Position numbers and translations under genes: made by a program. The notes beneath the pieces are model-generated. The model was not told the origin of the DNA. It worked only from the letters and a program-made list of their open reading frames with translations, and ran no database searches. From contig CAYZIR010000005.1 in NCBI GenBank assembly GCA_964478705.1, positions 508 through 64,507 on the forward strand: a stretch of 64,000 nucleotides of DNA, written 5' to 3'. The DNA is from an uncultured Candidatus Saccharibacteria bacterium (lineage in GTDB: Bacteria; Patescibacteriota; Minisyncoccia; Phycocordibacterales; EsbW-18). Numbering within the stretch: position 1 is the stretch's first letter; each line of letters starts with the position of its first letter. Shown piece after piece: positions 12,711-43,797 of this stretch.

Positions 12711-15590
12711 TTATTGGCACGATTCACACGTTGGGTCATCCAATTTACAGAGCTTCAGTGTCTGTGTTTGCTGTTGGACGCTCGTTGTGCGCATCACAGG
12801 CACGGTGACGGGTTCGGATGCAGAAATTTCTGCTTTTATGCTTGCAACCGCCTCTTCGGCAACGATACGTTCATGCACCGTCGACGAAAGATTTTGTTTT
12901 TCAAGTGCCACCGTGCTCTTTTCGATAGCAGACGCACCAAGAGAACGGAGATAGTAGGTTGTTTTGACTCCCATTTGCCATGCAAGCTGGTAGACGTCAG
13001 ACAGTTTTGCTCCCGATGTGCCTGAGAAGAAAATATTGAACGACTGGCTTTGGTCAATCCACTTGCCTCGATATGCCGTCGCTTTGACAAGAAATGCCGG
13101 GTCAATTGCAAAAACTTCTTTATGCTTTTCCTTAATCCACGCTGGAATCGATGAGATAGCATCGAGACTTCCTTCTGCTCCTTTAATCATTTCAAGCATT
13201 TCGCTATTCCAGAGCCCCTCTTTTTTAAGATCGTCGACAAGATAGTTATTGAAAACAATGAAGTCACCACTGATATTTGCTTTCACATAAATATTCTTGT
13301 AAATCGGCTCAATGGTTGGGAAACAACCAGCGATATTTGCAATCGTTGCTGTCGGTGCCATTGCCATACAGTTGCTGTTGCGCATACCATATTTTTTCAC
13401 CGCATCACGCACAACGCTCCAATTGAGTTTTGCTGTTCGCGATACGAGTATTTCCTCCCCACGATCGCGGGCGAGCAAATCGAGTGTGTCGACAGGGAAA
13501 ATCCCGCGATCCCATTTTGAGCCCGCGTAGGTCTCGTAGGTGCCACGCTCGCGTGCAAGCTCGGATGAAGCAAGAATCGCATAGTACGAAATCATTTCCA
13601 TACTTTCATCAGCAAAGCGAATACACTCTTCCGATTCAAATTTCAAATCTTGGAGGTACAGCGCATCTTGGAAGCCCATGATACCCAAGCCCACAGGTCG
13701 GTGGCGCATATTCGATTTTCTGGTTTCCGGAATCGGATAGTAGTTCAAATCGATCACGTTATCGAGCATGCGCATCGCAAGTGTTGCCGATTCTTTAATG
13801 CGTGCTTCATCGAGTTTACCGTTGACGATGTGCTCAGCAAGATTGATTGAACCCAAGTTACAGACGGCAACTTCATCGTCAGGTGCGTTGTTCAATGTAA
13901 TCTCGGTGCAGAGGTTTGAGTTGTGTACAACGCCAATATGGTCTTGCGGGCTACGAATGTTGGATGTGTCTTTGAATGTAATCCATGGGTGTCCTGTCTC
14001 AAAAAGTTGTGTGAGTACTTTTTTCCAAAGATCGCGTGCCTTAATTTGCACGAATGTTGTGAGTTTCCCTTCGGCACCAAGCGCTTCATATTCTGCGTAT
14101 CGAGCGCTGAATGCAGAACCATACAAATCAGGAAGCTCCGGTGTTTCATCTGGAGAAAAGAGCGACCACATTTCATCGTCGCGAACACGCTTCATGAATT
14201 CATCTGGAATCCAAAGTGCCGTGTTCAAATCTGGTGTGCGTCGTCGTTCGTCACCAGTGTTCTTGCGAAGTTCAAGAAAATCTTCAACGTCGGCGTGCCA
14301 CGGTTCAAGATACACCGCACATGCACCGCGCCTGCGACCACTTCGGTTGATACACACAACAGTTGAGTCAAGAATTTTCAAAAATGGAATGAGGCCGTTA
14401 CTGTCGATACCGGTTGATTTGATGCGAGATCCAGTTGCACGAAGCTTTGTCCAGCTGTAGCCAACACCACCGTCAAATTTTGCCATGTGCGAATAATCTT
14501 CATATGCCTTGAAGATGCTGTGGAGATCGTCTCCTGTAACACCGAGGTAGCAGGATGAGAGCTGAGAGTGTGGCGTACCTGCGTTAAAGAGCGTTGGCGT
14601 CGACGGCACATAGCGAAGCGCTGACATAAGGTTATAAAACTCAATCGCACGAGCTTCTTTATCGCTTTCAAGGAGTGAAAGTCCCATCGCAACACGCATC
14701 CACATCATTTGAGGCGCTTCAAGATAGATATGGCGCTTGCGGTCACGCTTGTCGCGAAGCAAATAGCGGTCTGCGAGCGTCTGTGTACCGAGGTAGCGGA
14801 GCATATCATCTCGCGACGGCTCAAGCGCCTGCGCAAGACGCACAAGATCAAACTCGCCCATTCGAGTATCGGTGATACCAAGATCGATTCCTTTTTTAAT
14901 TGATGCAATAAATCCCTGACGATATGCATCAGCGAACGCGCCATTTGATGGATCGGTCACGTCCATCGTGTCCGGATAGACAGACAGTTCAAGTGCCGTG
15001 CGCGATGCGAGAAGTGAGTACGCTGGGTCACGCTCGATAAATGAACGCGCAACAAGTGCAACGGTGTGAGAAAGATCGCGCATCGACATGCCTTCATACA
15101 TTTCTCGCTCTGCTTGCGCGACCAACTCATCAATATCAATATCGCGTTCGATGCCACGAGAAGATTTTGTGAACAGTCCGCGCAGGAAATCTCGCGTCAC
15201 TGAAATACGTTCTCCACCGGCGATCGTCACGAAAAATTCGCGACGTTCAATTTTTTCAACAACAACTTCCTGTTTCTCTTCACGAATTTTTGCGTGCTCG
15301 TATCGATAGACGATGTACGATTTCGCAACCTCAAAAAACCCTTTCTGCATGAGGGCACGCTCAACCATGTCCTGCACTTCTTCAACCGCAGGAATGTAGG
15401 TCTCGCCAACCGCATTTGCACGTTCAACAAGGTCGGCAACAACAATATCAGAAACCATCTCTGCATCTTTCTCTCTCTTTTCATTGAGCACATCAAGGAA
15501 TGCTCGCTCAATCGCATGCGTGATCTTCTCTTGCTCAAACGGTACAATCTTGCCTCGTCGCTTGCGAACTTCCTTGATGATTGGATGCAT
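12711..15590 (-). CDS. nrdA: Ribonucleotide reductase class Ia large (alpha) subunit with N-terminal ATP-cone
   Basis: ATP-cone (KRRGKIVPFEQEKITHAIERAF), NrdA catalytic barrel motifs, C-terminal Cys tail (CKLDDPTCESCQ). Confidence 0.92.
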   Translation of the reverse strand: MHPIIKEVRKRRGKIVPFEQEKITHAIERAFLDVLNEKREKDAEMVSDIVVADLVERANAVGETYIPAVEEVQDMVERALMQKGFFEVAKSYIVYRYEHAKIREEKQEVVVEKIERREFFVTIAGGERISVTRDFLRGLFTKSSRGIERDIDIDELVAQAEREMYEGMSMRDLSHTVALVARSFIERDPAYSLLASRTALELSVYPDTMDVTDPSNGAFADAYRQGFIASIKKGIDLGITDTRMGEFDLVRLAQALEPSRDDMLRYLGTQTLADRYLLRDKRDRKRHIYLEAPQMMWMRVAMGLSLLESDKEARAIEFYNLMSALRYVPSTPTLFNAGTPHSQLSSCYLGVTGDDLHSIFKAYEDYSHMAKFDGGVGYSWTKLRATGSRIKSTGIDSNGLIPFLKILDSTVVCINRSGRRRGACAVYLEPWHADVEDFLELRKNTGDERRRTPDLNTALWIPDEFMKRVRDDEMWSLFSPDETPELPDLYGSAFSARYAEYEALGAEGKLTTFVQIKARDLWKKVLTQLFETGHPWITFKDTSNIRSPQDHIGVVHNSNLCTEITLNNAPDDEVAVCNLGSINLAEHIVNGKLDEARIKESATLAMRMLDNVIDLNYYPIPETRKSNMRHRPVGLGIMGFQDALYLQDLKFESEECIRFADESMEMISYYAILASSELARERGTYETYAGSKWDRGIFPVDTLDLLARDRGEEILVSRTAKLNWSVVRDAVKKYGMRNSNCMAMAPTATIANIAGCFPTIEPIYKNIYVKANISGDFIVFNNYLVDDLKKEGLWNSEMLEMIKGAEGSLDAISSIPAWIKEKHKEVFAIDPAFLVKATAYRGKWIDQSQSFNIFFSGTSGAKLSDVYQLAWQMGVKTTYYLRSLGASAIEKSTVALEKQNLSSTVHERIVAEEAVASIKAEISASEPVTVPVMRTTSVQQQTQTLKLCKLDDPTCESCQ

Positions 15591-15797: not shown

Positions 15798-16274
15798 TTA
15801 TTTTGTCACACCGTCCACCCCAAAAACCTCGAAACATGAGCCTTCAGTGACCTCTGCGGAGTCAAACACGCCAGCATTGACCTCAAGTACATAGCGCACC
15901 GGCAATGGTGGAGAAAAAATCTCTGGATAGGTCTCTGGAGAGACATTTCGAACGTCATAAACCAAGCAAAAAGCGTCATCTAACCATCCAATGTCGATTG
16001 GGAAGCGCATATCTCTCATCCAAAAACCATACGTGCTTGGTTTTTCAAATATAAAAAGCATTCCGGTTGAGGTAGCAAGGTTTTCTCTGCCCCCAAGACC
16101 TTTCCCATGCTCATCAGGAGTGTCCGCAATCTCTAGGGAATATACAACCCCACCAATATGGATGATGTTTTGAGTAAGTTGAGGAGTATTCTCTCCTATT
16201 TCTCTCTGAACTACGAAAAACCAAGCGCTTGCACAAAGCAGAGCTATACTAAGAAATATTAAGAGCGGTTTCAT
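15798..16274 (-). CDS. DUF192 (COG1430) family protein with signal peptide/TM
   Basis: GMLFIFEKPSTYGFWMRDMRFPIDIGWLD pattern. Confidence 0.55.
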   Translation of the reverse strand: MKPLLIFLSIALLCASAWFFVVQREIGENTPQLTQNIIHIGGVVYSLEIADTPDEHGKGLGGRENLATSTGMLFIFEKPSTYGFWMRDMRFPIDIGWLDDAFCLVYDVRNVSPETYPEIFSPPLPVRYVLEVNAGVFDSAEVTEGSCFEVFGVDGVTK

Positions 16275-24558: not shown

Positions 24559-24630
24559 GGCCTGGTAGACAAGTGGTAAGTCGAGGGACTGCAAATCCCT
24601 TATGCGGGAGTTCGATTCTCCCCCAGGCCT
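24559..24630 (+). tRNA. tRNA-Cys (anticodon GCA)
   Basis: GGCCTGG/CCAGGCC acceptor, loop CTGCAAA, TTCGATT. Confidence 0.88.
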
Positions 24631-24667
24631 CATGGAGATAGTCATGGGTCATTAGTTTTGTTGATAT

Positions 24668-24755
24668 GCCCGGGTGATGGAATTGGTAGACATACAGGAC
24701 TTAAAATCCTGGGGCCGTGAATTCGGTCGTGTGGGTTCGATTCCCACCCTGGGCA
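24668..24755 (+). tRNA. tRNA-Leu (anticodon TAA), long variable arm
   Basis: GCCCGGG acceptor, loop CTTAAAA, variable arm GGGCCGTGAATTCGGTCGTG, TTCGATT. Confidence 0.88.
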
Positions 24756-24757
24756 CT

Positions 24758-24916
24758 CGGAGGAAATTTAAACATTTTGATCGACGGTGGGAATCGAAGG
24801 CCGGAGGCGCGCCATTGGTCTGAGCGCCGACCTGCCTGCCGGCAGGCAGGGGCGGGGTCGAGAGTACTTAGAATTTTAGGCGCATAGCGACTAAAATACT
24901 TGAGTTGCTCGTGACC
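24758..24916 (+). repeat. 159-bp tRNA-3'-flanking element bounded by 19-bp direct repeats of the tRNA-Leu(TAA) 3' end
   Basis: GATTCCCACCCTGGGCACT at 24739..24757 and 24917..24935. Interior ..GGAATCGAAGGCCGGAGGCGCG..GGGGCGGGGTCGAGAGTACTTAGAATTTTAGGCGCATAGCGACTAAAATACTTGAG..CGTGACC is homologous to the tRNA-Phe element. Confidence 0.75.
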
Positions 24917-24960
24917 GATTCCCACCCTGGGCACTTACAGAATATTTTCAAAATAGGGCA

Positions 24961-25011
24961 CTTTGTTGTAGAGTTGTTTGTACCACCCATATAGACAACC
25001 TATATGGGTGG
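24961..25011 (+). repeat. GGTTGT-repeat plus tRNA-Lys 5'-end fragment embedded in an 11-bp palindrome
   Basis: TTGTTGTAGAGTTGTTTGT then ACCACCCATA (= tRNA-Lys nt -1 to 9), forming the palindrome CCACCCATATAG-ACAACC-TATATGGGTGG. Confidence 0.5.
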
Positions 25012-25153
25012 GGCGTGCGGACCACATGGCGTAGATAGCTCGGGCTCCCATTTTCTCGTGCTCAAGCAAAAATAAGAACAAGCTCTTATTTTTGCTCTCC
25101 ACTCGAAAACACGCCCTCGCTTGAGAGACACACCGCGTGTCATCCTTACTAAA

Positions 25154-25226
25154 CCACCCATAGCTCAGCTGGTAGAGCAGCTCCCTCTTAAGGAGACGGT
25201 CGTAGGTTCGATCCCTACTGGGTGGA
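25154..25226 (+). tRNA. tRNA-Lys (anticodon CTT)
   Basis: CCACCCA/TGGGTGG acceptor, loop CTCTTAA, TTCGATC. Confidence 0.8.
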
Positions 25227-25284
25227 CAGCGTTTAGAAAAAGCTTGGCAACTTGTAATGATATGCGATTCGCCTTTTGTCTGTC

Positions 25285-25323
25285 TTTGTTGTAGGTTGTC
25301 TGTTGTAGGTTGTTGGTTATTTC
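25285..25323 (+). repeat. GGTTGT-type tandem repeat abutting the tRNA-Leu(TAG) 5' end
   Basis: TTTGTTGTAGGTTGTCTGTTGTAGGTTGTTGGTTATTTC followed immediately by the tRNA. Confidence 0.7.
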
Positions 25324-25405
25324 GGGCGAGTGGCGAAATTGGTAGACGCGCTAGCCTTAGGAGCTAGTGTCGCAAGACATGGAGGTTCGAGTCCTCTCTC
25401 GCCCA
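25324..25405 (+). tRNA. tRNA-Leu (anticodon TAG), long variable arm
   Basis: GGGCGAG/CTCGCCC acceptor, loop CTTAGGA, TTCGAGT. Confidence 0.88.
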
Positions 25406-25570
25406 CAAAACAGAGAGCCGAGTGCGTCAGCATTCGGCAATTTTGTTTTGCGCGATTGAGAGAGGGCTCGAAGGGCGGAACCCCGCAGAGCGAGGTGAGC
25501 CGGGTCGAGAAATTTTTACGAGCGACGGCGAGTAAAAAAATGTTCTTGGCCGAATTCTCTCGGCCAAAGC
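25406..25570 (+). repeat. tRNA-Leu(TAG) 3'-flanking element with degenerate direct repeat
   Basis: Hairpin CAAAACAGAGAGCCGAGTGCGTCAGCATTCGGCAATTTTGTTTTG, module GGGCTCGAAGGGCGGAACCCCGCAGAGCGAGGTGAGCCGGGTCGAGAAA, motif ACGAGCGACGGCGAG. Degenerate repeat TCTCTCGGCCAAAGC (25556..25570) versus tRNA 3' TCTCTCGCCCACAAAAC. Followed by a perfect hairpin 25569..25597. Confidence 0.65.
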
Positions 25571-25658
25571 TTAGCTTCGGGTAAACCGAAGCTAAGCTTT
25601 GCTATTTATTGATGGCTATTTTAGGCCTCAACCAAGGGTTCAAAACCGTATCTATTAC

Positions 25659-25686
25659 TTGACTTTTCATATAAAAATGATACAAT
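25659..25686 (+). promoter_or_regulatory. Consensus sigma-70 promoter (TTGACT-N16-TACAAT) for the 25755..27271 operon
   Basis: aTTACTTGACTtttcatataaaaatgaTACAATag; shares extended TACTTGAC -35 with promoters at 43196 and 53654. Confidence 0.65.
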
Positions 25687-25754
25687 AGTCCCAGAAGCAC
25701 CTTTACAACCTGTACGAAAATTAACTCTTCCCTCTTGTGGGAAAGGAGCGGTTC

Positions 25755-26366
25755 ATGACTAAATTTACCAAGTGGTTGACTGGCGCATTCGCGGAACACG
25801 CGGTTGTCGCCGGAGGAATCGCCGCAGGAGGCAAACTTCTTCAAAGCTTAGCGGACGTAGGTGTGGAGAAGGCCGGGGAGGCAATCATGCGAAAGTTCAC
25901 AACAGAAGACAGGATGGAAGCAAACCAGCTTCTGACAAAGGCTCTCTACGATACGAGGCTGATACCACAAGAGCGCGAAGGCGCCAAGGTGGTCAACTTC
26001 TACTATGCCAACCTCGACCCTGATGGACGCGATCGATTCGAGCGTCTCGTGGGATATTCGTGGGCCGTCATGAAAGACGGCATTGGCGCGCTCGACCTCA
26101 AACAGGTCGAGAAGACCGAAGAGAGACCCCAGCAGAAGAAGGGTGAAGAACCGAAGCCGCTGAAGACGAAGACGGTCTTGATCCCCAACAACCCCCCTGA
26201 TCTTGCGTTCATGAAACACTGGACGCAAGTTGGGATGATGGGAGAAAAATTCATCATCCTTGAGCTCGACAAGCTCGACAAGTCATCGCCGTGGACCCGA
26301 GTAGTTTCCAGCGGAGAGGCAGTCATTGACTTCATCGATGGATTCACGAATGGAGAAAAGCGATGA
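25755..26366 (+). CDS. Hypothetical soluble protein (203 aa), first gene of an orphan two-gene operon
   Basis: AGGAG 8 nt before ATG 25755; GC-rich relative to neighbours; no recognisable domain. Stop TGA overlaps next start (ATGA). Confidence 0.55.
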   Translation: MTKFTKWLTGAFAEHAVVAGGIAAGGKLLQSLADVGVEKAGEAIMRKFTTEDRMEANQLLTKALYDTRLIPQEREGAKVVNFYYANLDPDGRDRFERLVGYSWAVMKDGIGALDLKQVEKTEERPQQKKGEEPKPLKTKTVLIPNNPPDLAFMKHWTQVGMMGEKFIILELDKLDKSSPWTRVVSSGEAVIDFIDGFTNGEKR

Positions 26367-27271
26367 GCACCACAAGCACAACTGCGCACCAGCGTGGGCA
26401 ACAGGCGCGACAGATCGTCAACAAGGGTGTTGGCGGTCTCGGTAAGCTCGGCGCTTTTGGGGGATGTCTCTTGGTTATTCTCTTCCTGCTTGTTTGCATC
26501 TTCATGATGTTCGCAACCGGAGGGATCGTGGGACTCTTCACTACCGCTGGTGGATCATATGCGGGCAGTGAAATCACTCAGCGCATGAGCATGAGTGCTG
26601 TCTTTGCTGTGCTCCTTCTCATGAGCGCTCCACTCGCCGCGCTCGCATTGAAATCACTTTTCGGAGTGAAGAATGCGAGACAGAGCTGGTTGGGATTCGT
26701 TGTTTCCATCCTCATGGCAGGACTCATGACATGGGGAGTCAGCCTGATTCCGATGTCTAGCCCACGTTGGGGTCAAATCGCAATGATTGGATTGTTCGTC
26801 TTGATGATTGGGGGGCTTCTCCAAATCTTCCTTGACGAAAAATTCCTACCACGACTACGAACATTTACACAGTTGGGATGGGTACTCCTTGCTGGCGCTC
26901 TCATCGTGAGTGTCGCCACATGGTGGGACTCCCGTCCAAGTGGACCAACGGGGGGAAACACACCGATTCAGCATCAATTCTCATCAAGTGCGAACTTCGC
27001 GTTCGTCTTGGAAAACGGCAAGACCATTGTGCTTGATGTCGAGGATCCGAGGTACAACCTCGACCCCGACAACAAATACGATGTGGTGTGGGACAACCCA
27101 GCATTCGGGTGCATGGAGGTGCTCTTTGCAGGGCGCCTCGTCTGCACCGACTGCGCTGAGAAGCGCGGAGAATGCAAGTATCGGCAAGACTCAGCAAAAA
27201 CGGTCTTATTCCGGCCACTGCACCGCGGGGACGTGGTGCACGTGAGCGGAATAATCACCGCACGACGTTGA
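26363..27271 (+). CDS. Hypothetical 4-TM membrane protein with Cys-containing C-terminal soluble domain (302 aa)
   Basis: Four hydrophobic helices (aa ~35-175), then soluble domain with CTDCAEKRGEC; no recognisable family. Confidence 0.55.
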   Translation: MSTTSTTAHQRGQQARQIVNKGVGGLGKLGAFGGCLLVILFLLVCIFMMFATGGIVGLFTTAGGSYAGSEITQRMSMSAVFAVLLLMSAPLAALALKSLFGVKNARQSWLGFVVSILMAGLMTWGVSLIPMSSPRWGQIAMIGLFVLMIGGLLQIFLDEKFLPRLRTFTQLGWVLLAGALIVSVATWWDSRPSGPTGGNTPIQHQFSSSANFAFVLENGKTIVLDVEDPRYNLDPDNKYDVVWDNPAFGCMEVLFAGRLVCTDCAEKRGECKYRQDSAKTVLFRPLHRGDVVHVSGIITARR

Positions 27272-27287
27272 TTCGTACAGGTAACAC

Positions 27288-27325
27288 AAAGGCCCGCGTG
27301 CACGCACGCGGGCCTTTTTTCTTTT
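27288..27325 (+). terminator. Strong rho-independent terminator
   Basis: AAAGGCCCGCGTGCACGCACGCGGGCCTTTTTTCTTTT. Confidence 0.8.
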
Positions 27326-27340: not shown

Positions 27341-27658
27341 TCAGAGTCCTTCTTCGATTTTCAATTCTTGCGTCCCCTGAAATTTGTTTTTTACATCGTC
27401 GTAGTTCGCTGGCTTGTCAGCACCAATCGTACCGATAATGATATTGATGATACCGAATACGGACACCATGATCACCATGCCAACCATTCCCCAGATGATG
27501 TTATTTCTCCCCTTCTCTCGACCGTCGTCGCTATCGCTGTTTCTAATGAATTCGATAACGCCCCATATGAAGATGATGACTGCAACTCCGAAGAGCGCGA
27601 ACAGTAAGGGCTCGAGAATCGAATCGTAGATACGAGCAAGAAGCTGATCAACGGTCAT
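27341..27658 (-). CDS. Pilin-like two-TM small protein, paralog 7 (no signal peptide)
   Basis: Core FIWGVIEF..DGREKGRNNIIWGMVGMVIMVSVFGII matches paralogs 1-6. Confidence 0.45.
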   Translation of the reverse strand: MTVDQLLARIYDSILEPLLFALFGVAVIIFIWGVIEFIRNSDSDDGREKGRNNIIWGMVGMVIMVSVFGIINIIIGTIGADKPANYDDVKNKFQGTQELKIEEGL

Positions 27659-27667
27659 GGACGTTGA

Positions 27668-28018
27668 TTATCGCTGAACGCCTGGAACAGGAAGTGAACC
27701 TCCTGTCTGAACATCAAACGCATTTGCAATGAATTTGACGAGACCAACAACGGCAACCATCACGAAGAGTGCGATGATACCGTAAATCATCAATTGCTTT
27801 CCTTCTGAACTCTTGTCCTCGTCGCCCTGTGCGAAGATGAACTTCACCAAACCCCAGAAGAATGCGAGAAGTGCCAAACCAACAACGATAGGTGTTGCAA
27901 GGTTTACCAATCGTCCGATTGCTTGCACAAGGTTCTCGATATTACCGAGTGACTGTGCGCTCGCAAGCGACGGAAGAAATGCGAATGCCGCAAGAGCGAG
28001 TACTGAATACTTTTTCAT
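27668..28018 (-). CDS. Pilin-like small secreted two-TM protein, paralog 6 (VirB2/TrbC-like topology)
   Basis: Signal peptide (..LASAQS), TM1 ..IVVGLALLAFFWGLVKFIFAQGD, charged loop, TM2 MIYGIIALFVMVAVVGLVKF. Confidence 0.5.
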   Translation of the reverse strand: MKKYSVLALAAFAFLPSLASAQSLGNIENLVQAIGRLVNLATPIVVGLALLAFFWGLVKFIFAQGDEDKSSEGKQLMIYGIIALFVMVAVVGLVKFIANAFDVQTGGSLPVPGVQR

Positions 28019-28099
28019 AGTGTTACTGTTTTTGAATCTAATTGCCTTTTATGGCCTTGTAATACGTATAAGTAAACCACGCTATCCCTAAACTATCAA

Positions 28100-28510
28100 T
28101 CAGCGGTTGTTGAAAGCTGGAATGGTCGGTGGAGGTAGCCCTTGGTTGTTCCCTTGATTGGTCTCATTAATGCCAACCGCACGCTGAAGGAAGCGAACGA
28201 TACCGAAGACTGAAAACATGACGAAAAGCGCAATAACACCGTACGTCATAAGCGTTCTTCCGGCCTCCTTCTCTTTTGGATCCCCTGCTTTGATGATGAA
28301 TTTGACCAATCCAAAGAAAAATACGAGGAGTGCGAGGGATGCGAGAATGCCAATAGCGATATTGATAATCGAAGTAATACCATCAAGTAAATTACAGAGC
28401 GTTGGATTGAGTGCTCCGGTACAATTTACGATTGCTGCGTCCACCGCAAACGGTGTGAGCATGAGTGCAAGAATACCGAGCCCGAAAGAAATTTTGATAT
28501 ATCGTTTCAT
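28100..28510 (-). CDS. Pilin-like small secreted two-TM protein, paralog 5
   Basis: ..FFFGLVKFIIKAGDPKEKEAGRTLMTYGVIALFVMFSVFGIVRF.. Confidence 0.5.
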   Translation of the reverse strand: MKRYIKISFGLGILALMLTPFAVDAAIVNCTGALNPTLCNLLDGITSIINIAIGILASLALLVFFFGLVKFIIKAGDPKEKEAGRTLMTYGVIALFVMFSVFGIVRFLQRAVGINETNQGNNQGLPPPTIPAFNNR

Positions 28511-28530
28511 ACAATAATGATACTAAGCGC

Positions 28531-28851
28531 TTAATTAGGTAATAGTGCGTTCTTAAGGAATTGTACGATGCCCCAGAACGAAAACAAGACAAACAACCCG
28601 AGAATACCGTAGCCCATCGTGCTTTTTGCACTCAGCTTCTTCTTCTCATCGCCTGCATACAAGATGTATTGCACAACCCCCCACATAAAGAAGAGCACCG
28701 CGAGCGACGAGAGGAGACCAATCAACGGGTTGACGAGCCCTGTAAACATTTCAATCAGTTGTTTGAGATTTTGTGGGGCACCCGCTGCCACCGCACTTAT
28801 CGGCAGTACTGCGCCAAGCACCATACCTATTCGAGGGAAAAATTGTTTCAT
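28531..28851 (-). CDS. Pilin-like small secreted two-TM protein, paralog 4
   Basis: ..LFFMWGVVQYILYAGDEKKKLSAKSTMGYGILGLFVLFSFWGIVQF.. Confidence 0.5.
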   Translation of the reverse strand: MKQFFPRIGMVLGAVLPISAVAAGAPQNLKQLIEMFTGLVNPLIGLLSSLAVLFFMWGVVQYILYAGDEKKKLSAKSTMGYGILGLFVLFSFWGIVQFLKNALLPN

Positions 28852-28855
28852 ATGA

Positions 28856-29263
28856 TTATTTGAGCACTTCTGTCTTTGGCGTCGGTTCTTTTTTTAGGTC
28901 GTCGACGGTTCCTTTAATGACATTGGCAAGTACTGTTGCACCAAGTAAAATCGCCGCCCCAATGACGGTGTAAAGAAATGATTCCTTCGCTTTCTTAAGC
29001 TCATCTTTATTACCCCGCGCCTTCACGAAGAGAAATCCTGAGTAAATGATGAAAATTGCAACAACATAGAATCCAATTTCTGCCACTTTTTCTGAAATCG
29101 CAATGATTGCGCCTCCAAGGTCGTCACAGTTTTCACATGCAAGCGGGTTCTCTATACCTTTTACCTCACCTGTTCCAACACCTCCCTGAGCAAAGACTGC
29201 AACAGGAATCATAATAAAAAGTGCAAGAACCAAGCCAAAAATATGTCGTTTATATGATTTCAT
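28856..29263 (-). CDS. Pilin-like small secreted two-TM protein, paralog 3
   Basis: Signal peptide ..AVFAQG; ..FYVVAIFIIYSGFLFVKARGNKDELKKAKESFLYTVIGAAILLGATVL.. Confidence 0.45.
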   Translation of the reverse strand: MKSYKRHIFGLVLALFIMIPVAVFAQGGVGTGEVKGIENPLACENCDDLGGAIIAISEKVAEIGFYVVAIFIIYSGFLFVKARGNKDELKKAKESFLYTVIGAAILLGATVLANVIKGTVDDLKKEPTPKTEVLK

Positions 29264-29690
29264 GAATACTATCTATTCTACCTTGTTTCTGAAAAACCTC
29301 ATCCACATCGGTATCCAAAAAGAAGTTCGTGAAGAGATTCACAATCAGCCACGCTGAAAATGTTATGGTAAGACCCCAAAATACATTCTGAAAGATCTTT
29401 TGTGCCTTACCTCGGTCTCCTGGGTTAGCGCTCGATGTTAGGTAGAGAAACCCTGCCCACGAGAAGAGAATTGCTGAGAGTGGAATCGCGATTGTCATCA
29501 AAAAATCAATGACGTTCTCGATGAGTGTTATAAAGTCAAGAAAATTACAATCCGGCCCTGCACATGGCACAAGGCCACCCGCACCAGGTATAGGATCCGC
29601 TGCCAAGACCGCCATCGGAACGAATATAAGACATATAAGCGCTATTGAGACCGCAATGCCACGGCAACGCATGTTCATATGCTCTTTCAT
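29250..29690 (-). CDS. Pilin-like small secreted two-TM protein, paralog 2
   Basis: Start reset to ATG 29690 (MKEHMNMRCRG..). Signal peptide ..AVLAADP; two TM with loop ..SSANPGDRGKAQK. Confidence 0.4.
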   Translation of the reverse strand: MKEHMNMRCRGIAVSIALICLIFVPMAVLAADPIPGAGGLVPCAGPDCNFLDFITLIENVIDFLMTIAIPLSAILFSWAGFLYLTSSANPGDRGKAQKIFQNVFWGLTITFSAWLIVNLFTNFFLDTDVDEVFQKQGRIDSIHEII

Positions 29691-29763
29691 ATATCCTTGC
29701 ATTGTATCGTAGAACATACGGTAACCACGCACGATAGAATCAAAAGAAGTGGACAACTGCCCT

Positions 29764-31059
29764 CTATCGGATCTCTGCACCCAAACGTGCTGACACATCC
29801 GCTACGGCGCGAGAAATCGAGAGACGCCCCGATGTGATATTGGCGACCATGTCAGAGAACGCCTTGTCTGTTTCAGACGAATTTGGGTCGAGAAATGCCG
29901 ATGCAATCAATGCTTCGTCGTAAAAAAGTGCTTGATAGGGGTCTTGAGGTTCACCAGCGAGCAAATCACGACGCACTGGAGGAAGATTCATCTTTTCGCT
30001 CCACAACGCCCCGGCGTCTGAGCCAGAGAGCAACGTCATGACACGAAAGGCACCCGCGACATTATCTGTCTGTTTTACGATAGCAATGCCATATATTCTT
30101 CCGAACGTTGTCACAAAGGAACTTTCACGAATCTGTGGAATGGCCGTCACATCGAAGTCGAGATTCGGATTTTTGTCACGGATTGCGAAGAGTTCGCTTG
30201 CAAAACCGAGGTACAGAGCAAGATCGCCTCGAATAAAGAAATCTTGGGAACGCGGAAGCGCTCTATTCCATGAGTAGAGTGGCTTAACGGGATTTGCAAA
30301 TTCCGTATAAAAACGAAGTGCAGAATCTGCTGGTGCCTCAGGAAGACCTAAGTCATCCGCGATGATGACACCTAAACGATTTCCTGCATCACGAAGCGTG
30401 ATAGGATTGCCCGCTTGCATGATTAAGGTTGCGATGATTTCTCGCGCATGATCAACGTTGCCGTATTCACCGAGTGCAATGACACTTTGGAGCACATTGA
30501 ACGAATCATCCACCTTAGTGAGTTTTGGATGGAAGTCGACAAGTTCATCCCAGAAGCGCGGTGGCTCAGGCAATCTCGCTGTATTCAATAACGTTCTGTT
30601 CCAGTACATCATCAGAGGATCGACGAGGATTGGAAGGCCGAGAATCCCATTCCGAGAGACAAAAATCTCTGATCCTTGTGTGTAGGTGTCACGAAAGAGG
30701 CGTTCGGTGATTGATTCAAACGGCACGGTGTAGAGCTTGTCTTCATACTCTGCAAGATGATCCCCTTGTACGATAATCGCATCGGGTCCGGTTCCTGATG
30801 CAAGGGCGTCAATCAACTCTTGCTTAAATTCGGCCTCCGAAAATGCCTCGTAGGTCACTTGTAGAGCACCACTCTGTGCTTCGTTGTATTTACTGACCAC
30901 TGAATTCACGATATCCGCTGGCAGGGTTCCCCAGACAATCGCTTCAGCAGGAACATCCTCACCACTACCGCCTGATTTACCGAACGTCGCAATAACAATA
31001 ACGCCGGCAACAATAAAAAAACCAAAAATACCGAGGAGTACTGACTGAAATGTACGCAT
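29764..31059 (-). CDS. Membrane-anchored extracellular solute-binding protein (ABC-transporter SBP family 1-like)
   Basis: N-terminal TM anchor then ~400-aa periplasmic-binding-protein fold; first gene of the minus-strand unit containing the pilin-like array. Confidence 0.55.
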   Translation of the reverse strand: MRTFQSVLLGIFGFFIVAGVIVIATFGKSGGSGEDVPAEAIVWGTLPADIVNSVVSKYNEAQSGALQVTYEAFSEAEFKQELIDALASGTGPDAIIVQGDHLAEYEDKLYTVPFESITERLFRDTYTQGSEIFVSRNGILGLPILVDPLMMYWNRTLLNTARLPEPPRFWDELVDFHPKLTKVDDSFNVLQSVIALGEYGNVDHAREIIATLIMQAGNPITLRDAGNRLGVIIADDLGLPEAPADSALRFYTEFANPVKPLYSWNRALPRSQDFFIRGDLALYLGFASELFAIRDKNPNLDFDVTAIPQIRESSFVTTFGRIYGIAIVKQTDNVAGAFRVMTLLSGSDAGALWSEKMNLPPVRRDLLAGEPQDPYQALFYDEALIASAFLDPNSSETDKAFSDMVANITSGRLSISRAVADVSARLGAEIR

Positions 31060-36693: not shown

Positions 36694-37998
36694 CTATACA
36701 GGAAGGTTAACTGGCGGTTCAGCCTTACGTGATTCGATACGACCAAATGTTGGTGTTTGGGCAACACCTCCTGGGAAGTGATAAATTGTTGCGAGCTCTT
36801 CAGTGTTCAACACAAACGTCTTGCTCTTGTGCGGTGGATGAAAATATCCGCGAGCGCGATAGGCGTCGAACATTTCTTTTTTCATACTCGCGAGCTTTTT
36901 GCCGAATGGATCTTGGAACCAATAGTCAAATCCCGTACCACGAAACTTCTTGAACCCGTTCAAATGCTGACTACTATACTGCGCAAGCACACCATTCAAG
37001 GCGCCCTTGTTCGCTGAATTGAATTTGTCTTTCTCAGCAAGATACAGTGCACGAATTCCAACATCGAAGCCAAGCTTTGAAATACTACGCTCGAGTGCAT
37101 TCACAATATCTTTCTCAAAGGTTGTGAGGTTAATCGGCCCACCTTCTTCTCCGTCCTTACCTTGGATGCGTCGTTTCTTGATGATTGATTCAATTTCTTT
37201 TTTCACGTCATCTTTCCACTTATCAGTCGGTTTCATTTGATCACCCACTTTCTTACCAATATCAAAAATATCTTCTATCTTCTTAATGCCTGAAAAGAGA
37301 CCTCCCTCTTTTTTATCTTCTGCTTTGTGTGCACGAACAACAATCTGAATCCATGCTTGTTCTCCCTGCCCCAATCCACCGAGGTATTCAATCACCGGCG
37401 TTATTGGGTCAATCTTAAATTCTTCTTTAGGATCACGATCCATACCGTAGTCGACATATGTTTTGATAGGATATGGATCACCTTTTGTGAGTTGAAATTC
37501 GGCAGCAGAAATGTCTGCCGTGTCTTTGTCGTAAAGAAACGCGAGTGTATAGTCAGGTACTTCAACAACCTCCGTTGTCGGATACTGTGCATAAATATTG
37601 TTTTGGATGCTCTTAACGCCACCCTTCCATGTCCAAATAAAAAACTTCACGCGTCCTTCAAGCGAGACCAATTCAAGTGACGACCATCCCCGAACACCTC
37701 CCTTCCAGTACTTATCTTTCCATGTACCTTCACCACCGGTGTTATAGAGCGAATTGAGCACAATCTCCATGGCAACCGGTGATTTGTTTACTTCTTTTGG
37801 CACCCGGATTTCGAGGAGCACTGGCTCTTGCGACAAAATATACATCGTTCGTCGCCATCGCATCCATGCAATGCAAAAACCATAAACAAGAACAATCGGT
37901 AGCCACACGGGTGACGCGAGAAGAATAAAGCGAACCGCTGGCCAGAGTGCCACACCTGCATCTACGAAATACGAAATCATATGCCTATGATAGCGCAT
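36694..37998 (-). CDS. Hypothetical 2-TM membrane protein with large extracytoplasmic domain (434 aa)
   Basis: Two N-terminal TM helices then ~370-aa Lys/Asp-rich domain; no P-loop or recognised motif. Confidence 0.4.
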   Translation of the reverse strand: MRYHRHMISYFVDAGVALWPAVRFILLASPVWLPIVLVYGFCIAWMRWRRTMYILSQEPVLLEIRVPKEVNKSPVAMEIVLNSLYNTGGEGTWKDKYWKGGVRGWSSLELVSLEGRVKFFIWTWKGGVKSIQNNIYAQYPTTEVVEVPDYTLAFLYDKDTADISAAEFQLTKGDPYPIKTYVDYGMDRDPKEEFKIDPITPVIEYLGGLGQGEQAWIQIVVRAHKAEDKKEGGLFSGIKKIEDIFDIGKKVGDQMKPTDKWKDDVKKEIESIIKKRRIQGKDGEEGGPINLTTFEKDIVNALERSISKLGFDVGIRALYLAEKDKFNSANKGALNGVLAQYSSQHLNGFKKFRGTGFDYWFQDPFGKKLASMKKEMFDAYRARGYFHPPHKSKTFVLNTEELATIYHFPGGVAQTPTFGRIESRKAEPPVNLPV

Positions 37999-38057: not shown

Positions 38058-39128
38058 TTATCGAGAGATACTGTAGCGTCCTTGGTCGTCTTTATCGAAG
38101 TAGTCGTCGTCTTGGAGGTTTACCACAATGGTGTTCGGTTTGACATATCGTTCTTTGAGCACTTTCTCGATGATATCGTCTTTTGTCATTGGACCGTGTT
38201 CATTGAGTACTTTTTTGATGACGTCGCGGACAACTCCTTCGACATAGCCCCATTCTGAGAGCGCGTAGAGACCTCGACCAACGAGCACAAAGCGAGAATC
38301 TTTGATGAGTTCGTTGTGGGTGGTTGCAATATGTGCCTTCTTGCCGAAGAGTTCAGCGATACGCTTTGCAACTTCAGTGAAGTGAAGCGGGCTTCCGTGG
38401 TTACGGATAGCAAGATATGCGTAGTCGCGGATACCTTTCGGTGTAATTGATGTTGATTCAGATGGACCCCATTCACCGAGTGCGTTGCTACCGATCTTTT
38501 TTGAAATCGAAAGCCAACGACGAATCATTTCTTCGGTTTTGTAGTGGTCAGAAAGATCTTTGACGTGGCTGAGGAACCCAGCGATGATATCTGCCTCTGA
38601 TACAAGCTCTTCGTCAGAAAGACCTGAGTAGAGTTTCTGGATAGCTTCTTCAATTGTTTCAGCAACTGACGAGTCAACGTGCCAGCGGTGTGTAAAGTGC
38701 TCATCTTCTTTTCGTTTCTCGAACGCTTCGCCAACAACCAAGAGGAAGTGATAGTGGTTGCGTGTTGATGGATCTTTTGAGAGGTGATTCAAAAATTCTT
38801 CTTCAGAAACAATTGCACCGAAGAAGAGCATTTCTTCTTTCAACTGATCGAATACGGCGCTTTCCTTTCCGTAGACGTCAGATTTACGAATAGTTGCAAG
38901 AGCGTAGTTCTCAATCTGACGAACGCGCTCACGTGTGATGTCGTATTGTTCACCAATCGCCTCAAGCGTCATGCGCTTCACTTTGTCACCCAAACCGTAT
39001 CGTTTGATGATGACGTCGCGAGCACGGTCAGAAAGAGCGCCGAGGAGACGCTTGGTGACCTGTTTTGGGTTGCCTGAAACCGCAATTGGCTTCGAAGCTA
39101 CCTTAGTTTTTGGAGCTGGTTTTGACAT
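38058..39128 (-). CDS. Sigma-70 region-4 HTH plus C-terminal HARE-HTH domain protein (putative transcription regulator)
   Basis: N-terminal RDVIIKRYGL..TLEAIGEQYDITRERVRQIENYALATIR (sigma r4.2-type HTH). C-terminal HFTEVAKRIAELFGKK...RFVLVGRGLYALSEWGY (HARE-HTH-like signature). Confidence 0.5.
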   Translation of the reverse strand: MSKPAPKTKVASKPIAVSGNPKQVTKRLLGALSDRARDVIIKRYGLGDKVKRMTLEAIGEQYDITRERVRQIENYALATIRKSDVYGKESAVFDQLKEEMLFFGAIVSEEEFLNHLSKDPSTRNHYHFLLVVGEAFEKRKEDEHFTHRWHVDSSVAETIEEAIQKLYSGLSDEELVSEADIIAGFLSHVKDLSDHYKTEEMIRRWLSISKKIGSNALGEWGPSESTSITPKGIRDYAYLAIRNHGSPLHFTEVAKRIAELFGKKAHIATTHNELIKDSRFVLVGRGLYALSEWGYVEGVVRDVIKKVLNEHGPMTKDDIIEKVLKERYVKPNTIVVNLQDDDYFDKDDQGRYSISR

Positions 39129-39204: not shown

Positions 39205-42108
39205 TTACCCCTCCCTCACCACGAGGTTAAGGACCTTGTTCTTAATATAGACAATTTTGGCTATATCCTTGCCGTTAAGCCATTTTTCGATGTTTTCCTC
39301 GCCCCGAGCCAAGGCAAGAACGGTCGCTTCCTCGGTATCTCGAGAGCAGGTTATCGTTCCCCTGACCTTTCCATTGACCTGAATGGCTATAACGACCTCA
39401 GCCTCAACAAGCTTGTCCGAATCGAAGGTAGGCCACAAAGCCTCGTGAACTGATGACGTATTGCCCATGCTCTCCCAGAGCTCTTCCGTGAGGAACGGTG
39501 CGAATGGTGCCAAAAGGAGTAGGAGCGTAGTATATGCCGTGCGAGAAACAGCCGTCTCTTTTTCGATTGCATTCGTTAGAATCATGAGTTGCGAGACTGC
39601 TGTGTTCATACGAAGTGCTTCGATATCCTCCCCCACTTTCTTGATGGTTTGATTGAGGACCGTTTCAAGCTCAGGCGACAACACGACGTCCTCGACTCTT
39701 TCCTGCAGACGCGCAACGCGTTCAAGAAAGCGTCGTACACCAACGAGTCCATCGGTTGACCACGCGATCGCTTGATCGAACGGTCCCATGAACATCTCAT
39801 ACGTGCGGAGCGCATCTGCACCAAAGCGTTCAATAATGTCATCCGGGTTTACCACGTTCCCTTTCGACTTACTCATTTTCTCCCCGCCTTCGGCGAGAAT
39901 GAGTCCGTGGCTCGTACGCCGTTGGTATGGCTCAGATGTTGGAACAACGCCAATGTCGTAGAGAAACTTATGCCAAAAGCGCGAATAGAGAAGGTGAAGC
40001 GTTGTGTGCTCCATACCACCGTTGTACCAATCAACCGGAAGCCAGTGCTCAAGTTTTTTCTTGTCGGCGAGTACTTCCGCATTCTTCGGATCGCAGTAGC
40101 GAAGGTAATACCATGATGAACCTGCCCAGTTTGGCATAACATCGGTTTCTCGTTTCGCATTACCACCGCACGACGGACATGTCGTATTGACCCACTCATC
40201 CATGTTCGCGAGAGGTGAATCCCCTGTGTCAGTTGGTTCGTAGCGCTCAACGTGTGGTAGTTCTACCGGAAGGTCGGATTCGGAGACCGGCACCCATCCG
40301 CACGATTCGCAGTTGACCATTGGAATCGGTTCGCCCCAGTAGCGTTGACGTGAGAAGACCCAATCACGGAGTTTATATTTCGTCGTCCATGTGCCACCAA
40401 CTGCTTCAGTTATTTTTTTCCTTGCATCTTCACTGGCTAGACCATCAAATTGTTCAGAGTTGAGAAGTATTCCTTCACCAGTGTAAGATTGCTGACCGCC
40501 CACATAAAACTCCGCATATTTTTTGTGGTGTGGCCACGTAATCGTTGAAATAAGTTTGTCCTTTGAAACAACGATGAGTTCGTGTCTCCCCTCTTCTACT
40601 TCTGACTGTGAACGTTCTGTGGAGTTTAGAATAATTTCAATGGCAGGGCCGAGTGTTCGCTGATTTTTATTTTTTGTGTGTCGATATCCATGACAAGAAA
40701 TCATTGAGGTCATTGAATGCATGTTCACTTCAAAATCTGTGAATCCTGTTTCTTCAATAACCTCTCTGCGAACTGCGGTCAGAAGATCCTCGCCATCTTC
40801 AACTCCTCCACCCACCAAGTGGACATGATCTCCATCTTTAAGAAGGTAGAAGTTCCCCATGGTATCGTGAATGATTGCATCAACAGTTCGTCGGTTTAAC
40901 GTTTCGAGACCGGCACGCTCTTGGTGTATTCCCGCCCCTATTTCTTGATATGCGACTACCTGTCGCATAGGCAAATTAAATTTCTGTGCAAACGCGAAAT
41001 CACGTTCATCGTGTGCAGGGACCGCCATCACCGCACCGGTGCCGTACGAACCAAGCACGTAATCCGCAACATACACAGGAATCTCTTCATTGTTCGCAGG
41101 ATTGATTGCTGTAATACCTTCGAGCCGAACACCAGTCTTTTCTTTCCCTTCCGCGGTACGTTCCATTTCTTCCTTATTCTTTGCCTCTTCGATATATCGC
41201 AGAATCTCTTCTCTGTTCTTTATCGACTCATGACTAGCGACTAATGACTGCACCAAGGGGTGCTCAGGTGCTAAAACGATGTAGGTAGCGCCGAAGATGG
41301 TATCTGGTCTGGTTGTAAAAACAGTGATTTCTTTTTTCTCGCCCCCAGTAGCTAGAACCTGGAATCTGATCTCAGCTCCTTCGCTCTTGCCAATCCAATT
41401 ACGTTGTCCTGCTTTAGCCCGCTCAATATAGTCAACGGTGTCGAGGTCATCGTAGAGGCGTTCGGCGTATTTTGTGATCGCAAGCATCCATTGCTCTCGT
41501 TCGCGTTTCTCAACCTCCGTCCCACATCGCTCACACTTACCATCAACAACCTCTTCGTTTGCGAGACCGATTTTATCTTTCGGACACCAATTAATGGGAA
41601 CTTTTGATTTGTATGCAAGATCGTGTTTGAAGAGTTGCAAGAAAATCCATTGCGTAAAGCGGTAGTATGCGGGGTCAGTTGTGTTTACCTCACGCTCCCA
41701 ATCAAAGGAGAGTGCTAAGCGCTTCATCTGTGCGCGGTAATTGTCGGTATTTTCTTTTGTTACCTCACGTGGATCGCGTCCGACCTTGATTGCATAGTTC
41801 TCTGTAGGAAGACCGAAGGCGTCCCAACCAATTGGATAGAGCACATTCTCCCCTTGTCTGCGACGCTTACGAGCAACGACGTCGAGTGCAGTGTAGCCAC
41901 GAACATGACCGACATGGAGCCCTTCTCCTGACGGAAAGGGAAATTCGACGAGTAAGTATGTTTTCTTTTTATCCGCGCTATCGGACGCTTTGGGGGCACT
42001 CTTCTCAAAGATTTCGCGCCATTTCTCTTCAATCTGTTTGGAATCGTATTCGCGCATGAATAGCTTATAGCTTCTAGGTACGAGCGTGTAGGTAGGGACA
42101 TCATACAA
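39205..42108 (-). CDS. leuS: Leucyl-tRNA synthetase with inserted NUDIX hydrolase domain
   Basis: HVGHVRGY (HIGH), KMSKSKGNVV, CP1 editing domain (TTRPDT..YVLGSYGTGAVMAVPAHDERDFAFA). Inserted ~150 aa (aa ~385-535, nt ~40506..40956) contains Nudix box GGGVEDGEDLLTAVRREVIEETG. Confidence 0.9.
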   Translation of the reverse strand: MYDVPTYTLVPRSYKLFMREYDSKQIEEKWREIFEKSAPKASDSADKKKTYLLVEFPFPSGEGLHVGHVRGYTALDVVARKRRRQGENVLYPIGWDAFGLPTENYAIKVGRDPREVTKENTDNYRAQMKRLALSFDWEREVNTTDPAYYRFTQWIFLQLFKHDLAYKSKVPINWCPKDKIGLANEEVVDGKCERCGTEVEKREREQWMLAITKYAERLYDDLDTVDYIERAKAGQRNWIGKSEGAEIRFQVLATGGEKKEITVFTTRPDTIFGATYIVLAPEHPLVQSLVASHESIKNREEILRYIEEAKNKEEMERTAEGKEKTGVRLEGITAINPANNEEIPVYVADYVLGSYGTGAVMAVPAHDERDFAFAQKFNLPMRQVVAYQEIGAGIHQERAGLETLNRRTVDAIIHDTMGNFYLLKDGDHVHLVGGGVEDGEDLLTAVRREVIEETGFTDFEVNMHSMTSMISCHGYRHTKNKNQRTLGPAIEIILNSTERSQSEVEEGRHELIVVSKDKLISTITWPHHKKYAEFYVGGQQSYTGEGILLNSEQFDGLASEDARKKITEAVGGTWTTKYKLRDWVFSRQRYWGEPIPMVNCESCGWVPVSESDLPVELPHVERYEPTDTGDSPLANMDEWVNTTCPSCGGNAKRETDVMPNWAGSSWYYLRYCDPKNAEVLADKKKLEHWLPVDWYNGGMEHTTLHLLYSRFWHKFLYDIGVVPTSEPYQRRTSHGLILAEGGEKMSKSKGNVVNPDDIIERFGADALRTYEMFMGPFDQAIAWSTDGLVGVRRFLERVARLQERVEDVVLSPELETVLNQTIKKVGEDIEALRMNTAVSQLMILTNAIEKETAVSRTAYTTLLLLLAPFAPFLTEELWESMGNTSSVHEALWPTFDSDKLVEAEVVIAIQVNGKVRGTITCSRDTEEATVLALARGEENIEKWLNGKDIAKIVYIKNKVLNLVVREG

Positions 42109-43229: not shown

Positions 43230-43797
43230 GTTGAGGTCGGCTTCGGTGAGCTTAGAAAGAAAGCTCTACGCCTTCCTTGGCATCACAGGTCGCCCCCCGG
43301 CCAGATTGTCTGCCGAGGGTCTACGCCTGCCACCGCGCCAACGGAAAAACACGGCGCCTGTTCTTTCAAAAAGGAGTCACACATTGAAGAAACGTTAGCA
43401 GTACGTTAGCCACGGAATCGTTCCGTGCTAAGGTTCCGTTCGCCTTAATCCCCTTTTAGGGAGAGAAAAGGAACGGAAACTAAACGTCGGACCAACGATA
43501 CACCTAAAATGGGTGACGGAGCTAACGATGCCAGGTGTGACTCGGCGCCGGAGATGAAAAGGGTGGCGCTGTATAAATAAATAACCCTGACTGTGACGGT
43601 AGTAGTGTTGTGTCGAATGCCGACAGAGGTTAAGACCCATCGGCAAACAGCCACGAGTGTGGCAAGACCAACAACATGAAACCGCAAAATCCTAGATCGT
43701 GCCTTACCGGTACGGCGACGGGTCGCAATATCTCCCCCCCCCACTAAATCTTACCGAAAGGAAGTGCCCCCGGCTCAACGAGTCCGGGGGTTTTCAC
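43230..43797 (+). ncRNA. Candidate ~570-nt structured non-coding RNA of unknown class
   Basis: Consensus promoter upstream, strong terminator GCCCCCGGCTCAACGAGTCCGGGGGTTTT at 43766..43794, no ORF with an SD. Internal hairpins CACGGAATCGTTCCGTG and GGTTCCGTTC...GGAACGGAAAC. Lacks tmRNA T-loop and SRP motifs. Confidence 0.4.

Follow-up and report, generated by a model that had tools for sequence, protein, structure and literature searches.

The stretch of 64,000 nucleotides analyzed here (contig CAYZIR010000005.1 of an uncultured Candidatus Saccharibacteria bacterium; hereafter the window) carries, between a cluster of four tRNA genes and an array of pilin-like genes, two overlapping genes that we call A and B and that an earlier note, made from the sequence alone, had described as an orphan operon in a landing zone of horizontally acquired cargo. 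Gene A (25755..26366, + strand) encodes a soluble and helical protein of 203 amino acids with no transmembrane segment and no cysteine, as judged from family alignments. Gene B (26363..27271, + strand, 302 amino acids) overlaps it through the sequence ATGA, and both open reading frames (ORFs) were borne out together with their overlap. In B, an N-terminal part (26363..26926, + strand, residues 1-188) is predicted from hydropathy, positive-inside count and an AlphaFold2 (AF2) model to form a five-helix membrane scaffold, and is followed by a C-terminal part (26927..27271, + strand, residues 189-302) which contains four cysteines and is predicted to be an extracytoplasmic domain. Since an AAGGAG ribosome-binding site is present at 25743..25748, 7 nucleotides 5' of the ATG at 25755, and since the alignment of homologues points to the same codon, this ATG, and not the GTG at 25737, is taken as the start of A.

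The pair forms a self-contained transcription unit. Upstream of A, a consensus scan identified the promoter-like sequence TTGACT-16-TACAAT at 25659..25686, with a TG 5' of the -10 box and 10 of the 12 consensus positions matched. The complete promoter (25658..25686, + strand) consists of CTTGACTTTT, a 10-nucleotide spacer and TGATACAAT, i.e., a -35 box plus an extended -10 box, and its pattern occurs once in the window, where 0 occurrences are expected by chance. In 10 related loci, including those with a second type of gene pair (type 2, described below), the -35 and extended -10 boxes are nearly invariant (ACTTGACTTTT ... TGTGATAyAnT), although the proteins encoded behind them share just 20-45% identity. 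A -35 box of the same style is also found upstream of a gene elsewhere in the window, and we therefore regard the A-B promoter as the strong-promoter consensus of this lineage and not as a special element. The promoter is followed by a 5' leader (25687..25754, + strand) which contains the ribosome-binding site and, at 25692..25709, the motif CAGAAGCACCTTTACAAC; in the alignment of the ten loci this motif reads CAGAAGCxCxTTxACAAC. A conserved RNA structure in the leader was considered and rejected, with no pairs given by RNAalifold and no Rfam family matching the region. At the other end, an inverted repeat (27288..27317) forms a hairpin with a GC-rich stem of 13-14 bp, followed on the + strand by a T-run and preceded by an A-run. 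It is the strongest terminator candidate of the region and sits between the stop codons of B and of the first pilin gene. The promoter match and this strong hairpin with its T-run thus agree with the description of the pair as having its own consensus promoter and terminator.

The position of this unit is fixed in related organisms. On its left (24559..25406, + strand), ARAGORN and Rfam annotate tRNA-Cys(gca) (24559..24631), tRNA-Leu(taa) (24668..24756), tRNA-Lys(ctt) (25154..25227) and tRNA-Leu(tag) (25324..25406). On its right (27341..29798, - strand), six tandem genes encode VirB2/TrbC-like proteins of the T4SS_pilin family (PF18895; T4SS, type IV secretion system). This array, kept in all related loci, is convergent (tail to tail) with A-B and not divergently oriented, as had been thought. 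Using the neighboring IF2 gene to choose related genomes, we found that the order aminotransferase (-), IF2, RbfA, tRNAs, a slot of 2-4 kilobases (kb), pilin array (-), SBP, methyltransferase and GyrA is kept across metagenome-assembled genomes of Parcubacteria/Paceibacteria; the order from IF2 to GyrA, slot included, recurs in loci L026 and L027 (W stands for the locus of the window; L003, L004 and so on for loci of related organisms). The same four tRNAs lie upstream of the slot in L003, L004, L005, L010, L026 and L027, and, wherever the contigs carrying an A homologue include upstream sequence, the unit comes after tRNA-Leu(tag) or the 3' end of this tRNA. A check of neighborhood conservation, advocated by the earlier note, hence shows that the slot between the four-tRNA cluster and the pilin array is kept in related Paceibacteria. 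In relatives, some of the tRNAs of the cluster are inverted.

A homologous or analogous pair occupies this slot in at least nine related Paceibacteria. On the + strand, L003 encodes proteins of 235 and ~296 amino acids, L004 of 203 and 289 amino acids (from overlapping ORFs) and L026 of 191 and 291 amino acids. L021, L028 and L030 have an A homologue, then a multi-helix membrane protein of 300-405 amino acids, then convergent PF18895 genes, and the succession of an A-like gene, a B-like gene and convergent pilin genes is common to W, L003, L004/L027, L026, L021, L028 and L030. L029 likewise contains a pair, followed by DNA 88% identical to the pilin flank of L005. The occupants are of diverse nature, three content types (1, 2 and 3) being found in all: L005 contains a 418-amino-acid B-like protein plus a second pair, a type-2 pair (proteins A' and B') is present in the slots of both L005 and L010, and in the more distant L006-L009 and L013 the slot contains an SPFH-like protein and a small membrane protein. 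In L028, an extra gene comes first in the slot (148..957) and encodes a 269-amino-acid protein with a signal peptide, many cysteines, a C-terminal membrane anchor and a Pro/Thr-rich tail (GC content 0.64), which is probably another surface protein behind the same promoter.

The A-B pair is hence not an orphan. A first metagenome scan for relatives found none and a second one only L027, which is the same organism as L004, and word-index protein searches with A and B returned only the queries themselves. However, an exhaustive HMMER search of 1.84 billion representatives, with A and B joined as one query, retrieved seven homologues of A (201-222 amino acids), four with 39-43% identity and three with ~30-34%. 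What stands of the earlier description is an undescribed membrane-associated two-gene unit of atypical composition in a zone of turnover; what falls is its isolation, given these homologues (30-43%) and the same-slot pairs of the relatives. Two Logan contigs, L001 and L002, are independent assemblies of the same organism and begin at window position 25189. Like them, most short homologue contigs break inside or just 3' of the tRNA cluster, which fits strain-level heterogeneity or shared k-mers at this border.

Protein A has the pattern expected of a real protein under constraint. In an alignment of 11 sequences, the motifs RDRFERLxGxxWxxxxDGxG, FMKHW...LELDKL and, at the C-terminus, FxxGF are conserved, with a variable linker rich in Lys, Thr and Pro between them. 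The AF2 model of A has a core (residues 48-108 and 145-178) with a predicted local distance difference test (pLDDT) of at least 90, and structure comparison gave no structural relative of the protein. A is a cytoplasmic helical protein. A relationship to the type-2 A' proteins was examined and is not claimed, the bare hint being an hhalign match with a P value of 0.006 over 48 columns and a probability of 6%.

Protein B has five hydrophobic segments, with four Lys and Arg residues in its N-terminal tail and then 1, 2, 1 and 3 in the four loops. On the basis of the positive-inside rule, its N-terminus would be inside the cell and residues 189-302 outside. The single-sequence AF2 model also shows five helices, and the earlier count of four transmembrane segments is therefore corrected; this model has a mean pLDDT of 52, below 50 in the outer domain, and is unusable for a fold search. 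The earlier note was right about a Cys-containing C-terminal domain, with cysteines at positions 250, 261, 264 and 271, and the C-terminal domains of the B relatives have two to four cysteines in the corresponding region. No homologue of B was found in the joint HMMER search, and a profile of the B family added just P0010 and P0011. Its scaffold is weakly and repeatedly similar to those of L004, L005, L026, L021 and L028 (E-values of 1e-4 to 1e-9 in small databases). Regarding the outer domain of W, HMMER, the B-family profile, the B proteins of the relatives and tblastn of the window gave no relative, and tblastn of B against the whole 64-kb window returned B itself, i.e., no paralogue and no silent copy.

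The absence of recognizable domains was confirmed, with Pfam, PHROGs, NCBIfam and PADLOC giving no match at or near threshold for A or B. When the domain libraries were run on all A homologues and on nine proteins related to B and A', no match came at or near threshold and none recurred, and profile hidden Markov models of A and B had no match among the sequences of the PDB. A and B are undescribed families restricted to one clade of the Candidate Phyla Radiation (CPR)/Paceibacteria.

Comparison of the loci supports the replacement of the slot content. Between W and L003, IF2 and GyrA are 67% and 82% identical, yet A and B share only 21-22%. Between L005 and L010 the same markers reach 81% and 92%, yet the type-1 pair is absent from L010 and the occupants differ. 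In general, the pilins are 46-68% conserved vs. 20-27% for A and B. When the DNA is compared, W can be aligned with its relatives up to ~25477 and again from ~27409, with only a short piece of A aligning in between. Two comparisons place recombination junctions in the promoter/leader region. L021 and L022, which come from different samples, differ at ~25 of 90 positions from the tRNA end to the transcription start region and at none of the ~1,360 nucleotides of A and B. L029 and L005 are 88% identical in two blocks, one made up of the promoter and the first 40 nucleotides of the leader and the other running from the outer-domain module through the pilin flank, while the segments between these blocks (1.3 kb and 2.7 kb) are unrelated.

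The second of these comparisons also reveals the exchange of modules within B. Residues 303-417 of the B-like protein of L005 (L005_B1) are 81% identical, over 115 amino acids, to residues 209-319 of L029_B, yet the scaffolds of the two proteins have no detectable similarity. L030_B also contains this module, at 47% identity, as do type-2 B' proteins, at 22-35%. The five-helix scaffold can be aligned across loci, while the C-terminal domains belong to unrelated types and are shuffled. The marks of a diversity-generating retroelement, i.e., paired template and variable repeats and a reverse transcriptase close by, were not found in the 64 kb of W: the 3' part of B has no repeat in 24400-27700, tblastn of B returned B alone, and no reverse transcriptase is present among the window proteins scanned. 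In L005, a stretch of ~90 nucleotides comprising the end of a membrane gene and the downstream hairpin occurs twice, after B' (14467..14557) and after B1 (~15885..15975). It is 96% identical to its L029 equivalent and is a possible substrate for the gain or loss of cassettes.

The composition of the pair sets it apart from its surroundings. The GC content of A (0.534-0.537) and B (0.541) compares with 0.477 +/- 0.030 for the 57 window ORFs, and the GC content at third codon positions (GC3; 0.64 for A and 0.60 for B) with 0.476 +/- 0.072. Both genes are about two standard deviations above the window genes in the two measures and rank 2nd and 3rd of 57, the sole ORF above them being 53767..54183. 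The pair is thus GC-rich compared with its neighbors, as the earlier note had it, to a moderate extent only (about two standard deviations, measured against these 57 ORFs). The excess sits at the third codon positions, since the first and second positions have ordinary values. The cassette is GC3-rich in every genome compared, whatever the GC content of the host (e.g., 0.57-0.65 vs. 0.31). In the pairs of W, L003, L004, L005 and L026, the synonymous ratio C/(C+T) is 0.66-0.72 vs. backgrounds of 0.26-0.58, and G/(G+A) is 0.51-0.64 vs. 0.31-0.58. The L004 pair, with a GC content of 0.52-0.55 vs. 0.40 +/- 0.025 for its neighbors, is 4.7-6 standard deviations away, and in L027 the GC content steps up at the start codon of A and down at the stop codon of B. 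Type-2 cassettes are GC3-rich too (0.68-0.77), while the SPFH-type occupants have no GC excess. The earlier note would have abandoned its proposal if homologues proved to be core genes of matching composition: homologues do exist in the relatives, but they are hypervariable and their composition departs from that of the host in every genome.

Codon bias linked to high expression can be discarded as the source of this excess, because ribosomal protein S2 and EF-Ts of the window are GC3-poor (0.375 and 0.419, respectively). The two candidate origins are a donor pool richer in GC and biased gene conversion at a hotspot of recombination. Of the seven G6/C6 homopolymers of the window, three lie in A-B (26192, 26810 and 26950), and the sole longer tract is a C9 at 43734..43742, at or just upstream of the 5' end of a 99-amino-acid ORF. 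Tracts of six bases are too short to argue for phase variation of A-B.

The comparisons thus establish the anatomy of the two genes, their family and its constant position, the conservation of the promoter, an excess of GC3 in all genomes compared, the shuffling of modules and the junctions of recombination. From these observations we infer a topology for B, an interaction between A and B, a high level of expression and a function. Our preferred reading, held tentatively and at somewhat less than even confidence, is that the slot is a variable site for envelope proteins, driven by recombination and occupied at present by A-B, with strain-specific surface recognition as its likeliest role. The borders of this slot are fixed, by the four-tRNA cluster and a strong housekeeping-type promoter with its leader on the left and by the convergent array of VirB2-like pilins on the right, and the content between them would be replaced by homologous recombination, with crossovers in the leader and at the boundary of the scaffold and the outer domain of B. 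B would be a five-helix membrane scaffold displaying a swappable, Cys-containing domain outside the cell, and A a helical partner in the cytoplasm, whose translation is coupled to that of B via the ATGA overlap. The likeliest role of the pair would be strain-specific recognition at the cell surface, in the form of contact with the host cell or of evasion or use of surface binders. We propose such a role because the shuffled, Cys-containing domain is predicted to face outward and because every relative has an occupant under the strong promoter. The 'landing zone' of the earlier note is in this respect right in spirit and wrong in mechanism and scope.

Several points weigh against this reading. 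No homologue has an experimental annotation, and the exposure of the C-terminal domain of B at the surface and the binding of A to B are predictions, the model of B being poor. The GC3 excess may come from biased gene conversion, from a donor pool richer in GC or from selection. The link with the pilins could be mere synteny in a conserved block, all the more as the arrays also adjoin the SPFH-like pairs of L006-L009 and L013. Finally, several loci are short Logan contigs in which assembly artefacts at the conserved tRNA and promoter sequences are possible, although the junctions recur in independent samples.

A bolder form of the same idea, which we consider unlikely, would be an integrase-free system of population-level antigenic or host-range variation. 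The locus would then be a dedicated Paceibacteria 'expression site' with an invariant strong promoter and leader beside the tRNA cluster, in which GC-rich modular surface cassettes are swapped time and again by homologous recombination among lineages; the displayed module would set, alongside the VirB2-like pilins, which host is recognized, and the GC3 excess would be the footprint of very frequent recombination through biased gene conversion.

The slot could also be a defence hotspot and A-B an anti-phage or exclusion cassette, with B as membrane effector, A as soluble sensor or partner and a variability driven by an arms race with CPR phages. A membrane-plus-soluble pair architecture is common among abortive-infection systems, and A-B shares it; the tRNA-adjacent location, the variable content (types 1, 2 and 3) and the atypical composition also fit. 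We nevertheless regard this explanation as unlikely. PADLOC-DB 2.0 gave 0 families for A or B at E <= 1, and the domain libraries revealed no nuclease, NTPase or other effector domain. The variable part is the predicted extracytoplasmic Cys-containing domain and not a cytoplasmic sensor. Moreover, the function of the slot looks core rather than patchily accessory, because every relative examined has an occupant under the same strong promoter.

An accessory role for the VirB2-like pilus appears doubtful to a similar degree. In this view, B would serve the pilus as platform or anchor in the membrane, or as tip adaptor, with A as the assembly factor in the cytoplasm. In every locus with enough sequence, the pair and the pilin array meet tail to tail at a common terminator region, and VirB2/TrbC-like arrays (PF18895, PF04956) are widespread in Patescibacteria and have been reported to be essential in one cultivated strain (PMC12102498). 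However, neither A, B nor their relatives matched VirB6/TrbL, VirB3 or any other T4SS family in Pfam and NCBIfam, and no VirB4- or VirD4-type ATPase or coupling protein was found among the 30 larger proteins scanned in the 64-kb window, in which only pilin-like genes adjoin the pair. In L006-L009, L010 and L013 the arrays adjoin different occupants, and the pilins are far better conserved than A and B.

Quite unlikely, in our view, is a vertically inherited and fast-evolving envelope pair, whose GC3 would result from selection on mRNA or translation with no exchange of cassettes. The conserved promoter and position would be accounted for, and the identities of A and B loosely track species groups, reaching 40-45% among L004, L005 and L026. 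Such inheritance does not explain the sharp identity steps at the leader (L021/L022 and L029/L005), the 81%-identical module on unrelated scaffolds or the different occupants of close relatives, and the GC3-poor S2 and EF-Ts, both highly expressed, contradict its account of composition.

The original idea, a one-off horizontal cargo that landed at a tRNA, e.g., by means of a site-specific integrase, and is unrelated to its neighbors, has become very unlikely. It could invoke the GC and GC3 values of the pair, its own promoter and terminator, the word-index searches that returned the query only, and a duplication of a tRNA end nearby. Indeed, the last 19 nucleotides of tRNA-Leu(taa) recur 178 nucleotides downstream (copies at 24738-24769 and 24916-24947, 84% identical, within 24738..24947 on the + strand) with an inverted copy of the T-arm in between (24786-24798), as found by repeat search. 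This duplication looks like the scar of an old integration or tRNA rearrangement. The 'integration-type repeats' noted at the tRNAs thus come down to this single duplication of a 3' end and the inverted copy of a T-arm, both upstream of A-B and neither flanking it. The 3' end of tRNA-Leu(tag) has no second copy in the window, even when two to three mismatches are allowed. From tRNA-Leu(tag) to the pilin array, A and B are the only credible genes and neither has a recombinase domain in Pfam, PHROGs or NCBIfam. Neither tblastn against phages and plasmids nor three IMG/VR scans found relatives of the pair. Insertion as a single cargo by a site-specific integrase is therefore not retained, and the homologous pairs with the same promoter in the same slot of at least nine related organisms largely refute a one-off event.

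Finally, the idea that B ends in a variable toxin domain, as in a polymorphic toxin or bacteriocin, with A as immunity or export partner, is hardly credible: B does have a swappable C-terminal module behind a conserved N-terminal region, and the C-terminus of A very weakly matches a lactococcin-G-beta-type model of NCBIfam (E-value 0.13, far below threshold), but library scans found no toxin domain, B is directly followed by the terminator and the convergent pilin gene with no gene at the expected immunity position, and A lies upstream and is the more conserved of the two.

A central question about ultrasmall CPR bacteria, still open, is how they recognize particular hosts and become attached to them and, to our knowledge, there are almost no candidate molecules outside Saccharibacteria. 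The A-B locus, with its strongly promoted membrane protein, its exchangeable outer domain and its proximity to a pilin array reported to be essential in a cultivated relative, is a concrete candidate. It is also a clean natural case of cassette replacement with mapped junctions, and its host-GC-independent GC3 excess could be of use in discussions of bacterial biased gene conversion. Moreover, as neither family is present in any domain or structure library, their description would leave CPR genomes with two fewer 'hypothetical protein' families.

Other genes of the window deserve mention. The ORF that exceeds A and B in GC content (53767..54183, + strand, 138 amino acids) is a second GC3-rich orphan (GC 0.568, GC3 0.74, C/(C+T) 0.81). 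It has a near-consensus promoter (TTGACA-17-TACAAT at 53654..53682), an 85-nucleotide leader and a strong terminator (54191..54219), and lies tail to tail with a Peptidase_C39-like gene (54228..54734), in a 'moron-like' style similar to that of A-B. It had no Pfam match, no phage match and no copy in the fetched loci. The leucyl-tRNA synthetase (39205..42108, - strand, 967 amino acids) is an unusual fusion, with a NUDIX domain (residues 405-482, E-value 6e-10) inserted just after the editing domain. Two large proteins (45750..49256, - strand, 1168 amino acids, and 36694..37998, - strand, 434 amino acids) have no Pfam family; genes near them encode a membrane protein with DUF5671 (42172..43128) and a protein in which Sigma70 region 4 is joined with a HARE-HTH domain (38058..39128).

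Among known systems, the VirB2/TrbC-like pilin arrays of Patescibacteria share the neighborhood and the lineage of A-B. These arrays, too, consist of paralogues that differ from one another, presumably for contact with varied hosts, and the study reporting them describes no such neighboring pair (Microb Genom 2025, PMC12102498). A and B are not pilins and have no similarity to them; the pair is transcribed as a unit of its own, convergent with the array, and is far more variable. In the more distant relatives, the SPFH-like gene followed by a small membrane protein with a C-terminal domain recalls the SPFH (Band 7)/NfeD-type operons. However, Pfam found no Band_7 domain in A or B and the comparison of the A family with the SPFH-like slot proteins by hhalign was negative (probability 0.1%), while the SPFH-type occupants themselves lack the GC excess and have no detected NfeD domain.

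Other parallels are found in loci that vary a displayed domain. CDI/Rhs-type swapping of C-terminal domains and expression-site antigenic variation are examples of variable surface-protein or polymorphic C-terminal-domain loci. With these, A-B shares a conserved N-terminal scaffold, exchangeable C-terminal modules and junctions at conserved sequence; it differs from them in having no toxin/immunity pair, no delivery domain and, in the 64-kb window, no silent copies; its scaffold is a five-helix membrane protein, and its family is unrelated to them in sequence. Phage morons, a term associated with Hendrix and colleagues, are reportedly autonomous transcription units with their own promoter and terminator and a deviant GC content. 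A-B resembles them as a promoter-gene-terminator unit with a GC content unlike that of its neighbors, but it is found amid housekeeping genes and not in a prophage, has no phage relatives and keeps its position across genomes. Lastly, like tRNA-linked genomic islands, A-B is adjacent to tRNAs, atypical in composition and variable in content; unlike them, it has no integrase and no flanking att duplication, is only 1.6 kb long, and appears to be exchanged through its homologous flanks.

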